Counted from the first letter of the stretch, positions 29,737-29,925 are shown. The stretch: 64,000 nt of DNA from a virus (IMGVR_UViG_3300042154_002208); one strand, 5' to 3'. The notes: generated by a model not told the origin, from the sequence alone. Numbers and translations: made by a program.

Positions 29737-29744
29737 TATAAATA
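29737..29744 (+). promoter_or_regulatory. T4-type late promoter driving the leader peptide
   Basis: TATAAATA five nt before the ATG at 29750. Confidence 0.75.
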
Positions 29745-29749
29745 TTTTT

Positions 29750-29857
29750 ATGAACAATAAATTTAACCTTTTCTGTCAGCATCAAGAACCGACTTCTTAT
29801 ATTGGAACGTCAGAGCGCGTTGCAGACAAAAATTCATGGAGTGTGCTTCAGGGTTAG
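29750..29857 (+). CDS. Putative attenuator leader peptide (35 aa, all 20 amino acids)
   Basis: MNNKFNLFCQHQEPTSYIGTSERVADKNSWSVLQG; no SD; 29 distinct sense codons; last codons are complementary to the terminator 5' arm. Confidence 0.65.
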   Translation: MNNKFNLFCQHQEPTSYIGTSERVADKNSWSVLQG

Positions 29858-29886
29858 AATTTAAATTTCATACAAGTTTATCTTAG

Positions 29887-29925
29887 AACCCTCGGCACTT
29901 CTACAGTCCGAGGGTTTTCCTTTTG
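29887..29925 (+). terminator. Intrinsic terminator (attenuator 3:4 hairpin) upstream of the tRNA array
   Basis: AACCCTCGG 29887-95 pairs with CCGAGGGTT 29908-16, followed by TTCCTTTT. Confidence 0.8.

Follow-up and report, generated by a model that had tools for sequence, protein, structure and literature searches.

A putative leader-peptide attenuator with an amino-acid-diverse leader upstream of the tRNA array of an uncultured T4-like phage

The window, by which we mean the whole 64,000-nucleotide (nt) stretch of viral DNA analysed here (IMGVR_UViG_3300042154_002208), comes from an uncultured T4-like myovirus whose DNA polymerase is ~50% identical to cyanomyovirus gp43. Its DNA is recurrent across many lake-water metagenomes, and no relative of the leader element described below, or of its region, was found among cultured phages. 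The window carries 25 transfer RNA (tRNA) genes, 24 of them from 30040 onward, and the segment preceding this array contains a late promoter, a short open reading frame (ORF) and an intrinsic terminator. Judged from its sequence, this element is on balance probably a ribosome-mediated (leader-peptide) transcription attenuator, placed between the late promoter and the tRNA array and gating read-through into it.

Organisation of the locus

The features of the element are listed here; clades A to E are the groups of relatives set out in the next section.

29737-29744, + strand: T4-type late promoter box TATAAATA, invariant in clades A-D, predicted transcription start (+1) at 29750
29750-29857, + strand: leader ORF, 35 codons (29750-29854) and a TAG stop (29855-57), with 20 amino acids and 29 different codons
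29750-29770, + strand: region 1, forming the 5' side of the long-range helix P1 (AUGAA, UAAAUUU, AACCUU); duplex P = 0.018 against shuffles
29843-29871, + strand: region 2, from the last codons through the stop codon into the first half of the spacer; pairs with region 1 or region 3
29843-29898, + strand: antiterminator hairpin formed by regions 2 and 3, with an additional inner helix (29862-68 / 29874-80); -18.0 kcal/mol, z = -3.9
29885-29925, + strand: intrinsic terminator, an 11-base-pair (bp) stem with a 3-bp extension and U-tract UUUUCCUUUU; stem conserved in five clades, loops different
29950-29978, + strand: consensus sigma70 (early) promoter of the tRNA array, a perfect consensus; kept in clades A, B (duplicated), C and D, absent from L055 and L072
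30040-30113, + strand: tRNA-Ile(GAU), the first array gene (tRNA call)

A first-pass annotation of the same DNA had described a late promoter five nt before an ATG lacking a Shine-Dalgarno sequence, a 35-codon ORF with all 20 amino acids and 29 different codons, an intrinsic terminator with a U-tract and a sigma70 promoter at 29950, and each of these was found again in the present analysis. The late box is followed by TTTTT and then by the ATG at 29750. The box of T4 late promoters spans -13 to -6 (PMC2988020), so that +1 should coincide with the A of this ATG. Homologues of gp55, the T4 late sigma factor, are encoded in contigs of clades A, C, D and E (E 1e-20 to 1e-23), so both parts of a T4-type late transcription unit, the box at -13 to -6 and gp55, occur in these phages. 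In the window the box is enriched before gene starts: for 5 of its 13 occurrences, an ORF of 80 residues or more has its ATG 17-29 nt downstream, where 0.27 would be expected. Another TATAAATA box lies 8 nt before an isolated tRNA-Met gene (10121-10194; region 10105-10194), which may be transcribed directly from this late promoter as an almost leaderless RNA.

Relatives in five clades

Relatives were sought through the upstream gene first and then through nucleotide motifs of the ORF end and the terminator, with clades B-E coming from IMG/VR contigs.

Clade A: window, L001-L014, L037/38, L051 and L071; 8 peptide variants; reference ORF window:29750-29854:+
Clade B: L008, L060 and L063; 3 DNA variants (2 peptides); reference ORF L008:5262-5357:+
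Clade C: L022, L025, L053, L055, L057 and L058; 6 complete variants, with L061 and L065 incomplete; reference ORF L025:2436-2534:+
Clade D: L068/L069; 1 variant; reference ORF L068:766-867:+
Clade E: L072; 1 variant; reference ORF L072:5860-5949:-

A short ORF upstream of the tRNA array, with a peptide only loosely kept, was what the first-pass annotation had expected of related phages, and this is the case in all five clades. The ORFs have 35, 32, 33, 34 and 30 codons in clades A to E, and the peptides of clades A-D are only 38-41% identical between clades. The array lies directly 3' of the element in every clade, and on the upstream side at least five unrelated genes occur as neighbours; the constant partner of the element is therefore the tRNA array. 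Two relatives have no promoter between the terminator and the tRNAs. In L055 a tRNA-Asp gene begins 18 nt after the terminator stem, and in L072 a small ORF is followed by tRNA-Met; the tRNAs of these two phages therefore need read-through.

The late box is 5-6 nt from the ATG, without a Shine-Dalgarno sequence, in clades A and B, and 19-21 nt from it in clades C and D, where AGGAG or AAGGA stands 5 nt before the ATG. The leaderless mRNA proposed in the first-pass annotation is thus consistent with the geometry of A and B and not with that of C and D. In clade E the box is imperfect. A search of cellular genomes gave 117 pattern matches, none of which combined the ORF, the box and the tRNA context.

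Competing RNA structures

The terminator stem of the window pairs 29885-29895 with 29908-29918 (11 bp, -18.7 kcal/mol), with a T-tract 3' of it; a simple terminator scan passed over it solely because its loop is longer than 8 nt. All clades have a 9-11-bp G+C-rich stem with a U-tract, at -15.6 to -18.8 kcal/mol.

The pairing of the ORF end with the 5' arm of this terminator, suggested from the window alone, is exact and has P ~0.001 against shuffles. It consists of GUGCU 29843-47 with GGCAC 29894-98, AGGGUU 29850-55 with AACCCU 29887-92 and, inside these, UAAAUUU 29862-68 with AAGUUUA 29874-80. An antiterminator-type hairpin, formed between the 5' arm of the terminator and the ORF end with its spacer, is present in every clade at -14 to -22 kcal/mol. 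When the upstream half was shuffled and the terminator arm held fixed, P for clades A to E was 0.001, 0.008, 0.001, 0.001 and 0.001. The outer helix sets a conserved AGGG(U/C)U motif against ACCCU. The inner helix, just 3' of the stop codon, has a clade-specific sequence, and its pairing is always kept, as UAAAUUU/AAGUUUA, AAGAUU/AAUCUU, UAGGUAA/UUACCUG or UAUUAAAAC/GUUUUGAUA. A covariance model of the clade A antiterminator matched B and D, not C or E, and was left out of the cross-clade pair counts; a MAFFT alignment of the spacer was structurally not meaningful.

Region 2 has a second partner. In the minimum-energy fold of the whole window transcript, 29750-70 is paired with 29850-71, forming the helix P1, and a pairing of this kind, between the 5' part of the ORF and the ORF end with the spacer, is significant (P < 0.05) in clades A, C, D and E. 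In clade C, P1 is a 15-bp helix that buries the Shine-Dalgarno sequence and the AUG. The window transcript can thus adopt two mutually exclusive global folds, one at -45.4 kcal/mol with P1 formed and the terminator free, the other at -41.0 kcal/mol with the ORF end and spacer on the terminator 5' arm. Pairings 1:2 and 2:3 exclude each other, the latter having P <= 0.008 in five clades. The gap between the two folds, 4.4 kcal/mol in the window, is ~1-6 kcal/mol in A, B and E and 19 kcal/mol in C, whose full-length fold is very stable (z = -8.3); in D the antiterminator fold is the minimum. Until the polymerase has made the 3' arm of the terminator, the fold of lowest energy in A, B and D is the antiterminator. 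In A-D the stop codon falls within region 2, and in E 5 nt 3' of it, a position from which a ribosome at the stop codon would mask region 2.

The effect of a ribosome was modelled as a 27-nt mask with equilibrium folding. In this model the terminator is favoured when no ribosome is present, and also, as the first-pass annotation had supposed, when one sits near the stop codon; the other half of that proposal, that stalls elsewhere release the antiterminator, is reproduced only for early codons, and only in clades A-C.

An Rfam search of the element at gathering and permissive thresholds returned tRNAs only. A match to His_leader (E = 2.1) was rejected as chance, being below threshold and accompanied by a similar match on the opposite strand.

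Predicted translation of the leader, and selection on it

The leader ORF shows an unusual pattern of substitution. Between the window and four clade A relatives, its ratio of replacement to synonymous differences per site (pN/pS) is 0.56-1.18, with pS of 0.06-0.22, and four neighbouring genes used as a reference have pN/pS of 0-0.25 and pS of 0.06-0.62, mostly above 0.2. Compared with most of the neighbouring genes, the leader thus has synonymous sites that are 2-5 times more conserved. Synonymous sites that are conserved, together with replacement sites that are not protected, indicate that it is the RNA, rather than the peptide, that is constrained: there is no protein-level selection on the peptide, and selection acts at the RNA level. 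Variable codons are located in hairpin loops and bulges. The conserved end of the peptide, [QE]-G-stop, corresponds to the antiterminator strand, and the underlying motif AGGGUUAG is kept in clade E in another reading frame. A greater conservation of the element than of its surroundings was considered and dropped, the clade A relatives being 85-94% identical overall; the real conservation signal comes from the codon-position pattern and the distant clades, and not from overall identity.

The frame has nevertheless stayed open in each of the five clades, through indels and heavy sequence divergence, and is preceded by predicted start signals, the AUG lying at the predicted +1 in A and B or 5 nt after AGGAG or AAGGA in C and D. 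A short upstream ORF with putative signals for translation is thus found in all five clades, and the open frame and the kept start signals argue that translation of the leader matters. A metatranscriptome variant (run X16) has a 3-nt deletion at 29797, inside the ORF, that keeps the frame, and it is counted as a further sign of translation. In the protein database, the leader peptide is matched by a single near-identical 35-residue entry among 5.8 billion proteins. The codons of the leader are somewhat rarer than those in the phage's genes (7th percentile), a weak trend.

Seven RNA libraries contain part of the element. Contigs from lake metatranscriptomes, which are assembled, may include DNA and cannot show RNA ends, cover 29553-29854 at low depth, in pieces running from the upstream gene into the ORF.

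Amino-acid composition of the leader

The leader peptides contain 20 kinds of residue out of 35 in clade A (all eight variants), 19/32 in B, 18-20/33 in C, 20/34 in D and 15/30 in E, against 15.0-15.5 +/- 1.4 kinds in random peptides of the phage's composition. A permutation test of the complete coverage had been proposed with the first-pass annotation. For the window alone the result is not significant, P being ~0.0006-0.002 per 35-residue ORF with 144-254 small ORFs in the window, so that 0.1-0.5 ORFs with 20/20 coverage are expected per window by chance. Any weight given to the coverage therefore comes from the relatives only. These were found by nucleotide patterns that do not select on peptide composition, and their diversity is extreme in four of the five clades and ordinary in clade E: P for clades A to E is 0.0005, 0.004, 0.0003, 0.0004 and 0.55, and with all residues shared with any other clade held fixed it is 0.06 for B, 0.004 for C, 0.001 for D and 0.9 for E. 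The five other reading frames of the same DNA encode 14-19 kinds, and the real frame is the richest of the six in A-D. Leaders with 18-20 kinds contain 9-11 singleton residues.

The tRNA set of the window (30040-38521) covers 19 amino acids and lacks tRNA-Phe, and the window leader has two Phe codons. The clade B leader has no Phe, and L057, of clade C, carries tRNA-Phe.

Other features of the region

A hairpin precedes the element:

29713-29730, + strand: hairpin GCACC-N8-GGUGC, directly 3' of the stop codon of the upstream 137-residue gene, without a U-tract

Its stem is invariant and its loop variable in relatives, and it is also present in L008, where the leader sits elsewhere; it is context, outside the switch.

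Five sigma70 promoters with a 12-of-12 consensus occur within 5 kb, at 29212, 29950, 30322, 32129 and 34242; four of the five have an extended -10 TG, and the tRNA region is split into separate early units. In clade B, two near-identical consensus sigma70 promoters ~85 nt apart lie between the terminator and the tRNA array (L008:5450-5563).

Clade C has a conserved G-rich structured element between the upstream gene and the late box, with a short CGUC...GACG hairpin followed by GGGGGAG...CGCCCC (L025:2300-2385; also in L022, L053, L055 and L057). It is found too in L024 (4385-4455), where it is followed directly by tRNA-Ile, with no leader. This first array tRNA of L024 (4464-4538) has the anticodon AAT according to ARAGORN, which is unusual for bacteria and phages.

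Proposed mechanism and alternatives

If the element is an attenuator, its operation may be envisaged as follows. Late RNA polymerase, directed by gp55, would start at 29750, giving an RNA that begins with AUG in clades A and B, or with a Shine-Dalgarno leader in C and D, and a ribosome would trail the polymerase along the ORF. A ribosome reaching the stop codon in time would cover region 2, the terminator would form and an RNA of ~170 nt would be released. If no ribosome were loaded, P1 would form and the terminator would form again. A ribosome that was on the ORF but delayed would block region 1 and allow the local antiterminator to form first, giving read-through into the tRNA genes. That a stall anywhere on the ORF might trigger read-through is a kinetic conjecture, going beyond the equilibrium folds.

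The leaders of four clades contain 18-20 of the 20 amino acids, so that running short of almost any charged tRNA could cause the delay. We propose, tentatively and with the whiB7 leader as a precedent, that the leader senses such shortages and feeds decoding capacity back to late tRNA synthesis. The element might then act as a homeostat for decoding capacity, slow decoding opening the ~24-gene array and fast decoding closing it, although we rate this as rather less likely than not. The 5' end of each late transcript would encode a test peptide using every amino acid once or a few times, and the triggers could be the cutting of host tRNAs by anticodon nucleases, the shut-off of the host, or starvation.

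A number of observations weigh against an attenuator, or against its strong form, in which almost every tRNA is sensed. In the mask model the antiterminator wins only with the P-site at codons 1-4 (A), 2-14 (B) or 3-7 (C); in D and E it does not win at any position. The P1 pairing is weaker in clade B and falls short of significance there (P 0.2 against shuffles). Across clades, the antiterminator and terminator pairings for which the first-pass annotation suggested a covariation test are kept, with clade-specific helix sequences. No both-sided compensatory change was found within clades among the variants compared; the changes there are one-sided, wobble-compatible (G-U/A-U/G-C) or in loops and bulges, with a few pairs broken. 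In one relative, L024, the upstream gene is followed directly by the array and the leader is missing. The consensus sigma70 promoter that follows the terminator in most clades makes the array independent of read-through early in infection. No metatranscriptome contig, among the sparse assembled contigs, crosses 29863-29913. Against the strong form stand the ordinary 15 kinds of amino acid in clade E, the fall to 18-19 kinds in clade C variants, which lose D, H, I or A, and the confinement of leaderless geometry to clades A and B, clades C and D having a 19-21-nt leader with a Shine-Dalgarno sequence. The retention of 20 kinds within clade A is not significant (P 0.07-0.4), and within-clade substitutions reach singleton residues about as often as by chance. 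Finally, transcription start, translation, termination efficiency and read-through are all predictions made from the DNA. The geometry of an attenuator put forward in the first-pass annotation is thus supported, the ORF, the terminator, the alternative pairings and the position before the array all being kept, and the sensing of all tRNAs is weakened by the composition of clade E and by switching confined to early codons.

These same observations give some purchase to an attenuator whose diversity is incidental, and which reports ribosome loading, or keeping pace, or stalls at the first ~10 codons rather than the state of the whole tRNA pool. The early-codon switching in the equilibrium masks, the 15 kinds in clade E and 18-19 in clade C variants, the chance-like substitution of singleton residues and the fair diversity of the other frames of the same DNA (14-19 kinds) are all as it would predict. 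We nevertheless regard it as unlikely, because 19-20 kinds in four clades are hard to obtain with shared residues fixed (P 0.06, 0.004, 0.001), the translated frame is always the most diverse of six in A-D, and in the whiB7 leader single codons far from the start trigger read-through (PMC10274678). Somewhat less likely still is an ordinary small late gene of 30-35 residues, with an ordinary terminator behind it that serves the upstream gene's transcript as well, the tRNAs being adjacent without regulatory meaning. Such a gene would explain its own late promoter, the good Shine-Dalgarno sequences in C and D, the terminator favoured at equilibrium, the strong independent promoter after the terminator in most clades, and the C-terminal motif N-x-W-S-x-x-[QE]-G and C...S-Y motif common to A-D. 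It fits poorly with a pN/pS of ~1, against 0-0.25 in neighbouring genes, with synonymous sites 2-5 times more conserved than in most of them, with variable codons confined to hairpin loops and bulges and with the survival in clade E, in another frame, of the motif behind [QE]-G-stop. Nor does it account for a single predicted homologue among 5.8 billion proteins, for the pairing to the terminator arm kept in five clades, or for L055 and L072, which have no promoter for their tRNAs.

A structured non-coding RNA, akin to a riboswitch and sensing a ligand, a protein or a tRNA, would have P1 competing with the antiterminator and an ORF that is incidental and untranslated. The multi-helix junction closed by P1, the alternation of the P1 3' strand with the terminator arm, which is the usual riboswitch layout, the conservation at the nucleotide level and the very stable full-length fold of clade C (z = -8.3) all suit such a sensor. 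We consider it very unlikely, however, given an ORF open in five clades despite indels and heavy divergence, an AUG at the predicted +1 or 5 nt after a Shine-Dalgarno sequence, a stop codon fixed inside region 2, a central domain that differs between clades in sequence and shape, and the lack of an Rfam family match, the His_leader hit at E = 2.1 having its counterpart on the opposite strand. A chance ORF in a spacer or 3' untranslated region, its 20/20 coverage an after-the-fact coincidence, is scarcely credible. With 0.1-0.5 such ORFs expected per window and very many windows scanned, the coverage itself could arise in this way, but all five clades keep the ORF, promoter, pairings, terminator and position, and the relatives, with only 38-41% peptide identity between clades, are not assembly copies of one sequence.

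Implications

It is still debated why phages have large tRNA sets and how these are controlled. Current ideas include codon compensation, a substitute supply for host tRNAs that have been degraded, and evasion of defences that cleave tRNAs (PMC10264068, PMC11464382). A translation-coupled switch before the array would tie tRNA supply to measured decoding performance, and would provide a compact natural sensor of general translation capacity. We found no description in the literature of an attenuator before phage tRNA genes; if the proposal is correct, the element would be the first case known of tRNA genes under the control of an attenuator, and the first of a leader peptide shaped by selection to contain all the amino acids and not to sample a single one. 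It would extend leader-peptide attenuation to viruses, to T4-type late (gp55) transcription, including leaderless mRNAs, and to RNA genes as targets.

Comparison with known systems

Among the closest known systems are the attenuators of amino-acid operons of Proteobacteria (trp, his, leu, thr, ilv, pheA). Like these, the phage element has a short leader ORF before an intrinsic terminator, three competing pairings (1:2, 2:3 and 3:4), a stop codon placed so that an on-time ribosome would mask region 2, and a terminator as the predicted outcome when no ribosome is present. Unlike them, it has no run of one regulatory amino acid, and its leader is close to maximally diverse; the codon run or enrichment for one amino acid that typifies trp and his was not found. 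A stretch of ~80 nt containing extra hairpins separates its regions 1 and 2, it would control tRNAs rather than biosynthetic enzymes, and it is served by a late promoter, with a leaderless mRNA predicted in two clades. There is no sequence or Rfam relationship between these attenuators and the phage element.

Another close system is the whiB7 attenuator of mycobacteria, where an upstream ORF (uORF), a rho-independent terminator and an antiterminator together sense general translation stress (PMC10274678). The amino-acid shortages to which the whiB7 uORF responds depend on its composition, single Trp or His codons being enough to confer sensing, and in M. smegmatis the uORF contains every amino acid except Cys (PMC10274678). 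As in the phages, the presence of the uORF is kept and its sequence varies between species; the whiB7 uORF, however, is longer and strongly Ala-enriched, and controls a transcription factor in a cellular genome (PMC10274678). The phage leader lacks such enrichment, packs 18-20 kinds into 32-35 residues and would control tRNA genes. The presence and position of the phage ORF are kept while its sequence drifts (pN/pS ~1; clades 38-41% identical), as in the whiB7 type; sensing set by composition would be the other mark of that type.

Leaders of the toiL, erm, vmlR and bmrB type respond to ribosome-targeting drugs, and several of them act via Rho or by translation attenuation. None of them is known to precede tRNA genes. 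The toiL uORF of E. coli topAI-yjhQ (PMC12121999) and the antibiotic-sensing erm, vmlR and bmrB leaders resemble the phage element in having a short ORF on which a stalled ribosome is the signal for expression of what lies downstream.

T-box riboswitches, too, couple the charging state of tRNA to terminator read-through by way of an antiterminator, but they bind one uncharged tRNA directly and need no ORF; the Stem I with its specifier loop and the T-box sequence that define them gave no Rfam match in the phage element even at E <= 10. The small stable RNAs of the T4 tRNA region, species 1 and 2, resemble the element in being non-tRNA RNAs that adjoin phage tRNA genes. They lie within the cluster or on its 3' side, are processed from the tRNA precursor, and are not known to carry an ORF or a terminator switch. 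Set among these systems, the phage element would be leader-peptide attenuation in a new setting, that of a phage, a late promoter and tRNA targets, with an unusual leader of near-complete amino-acid coverage.
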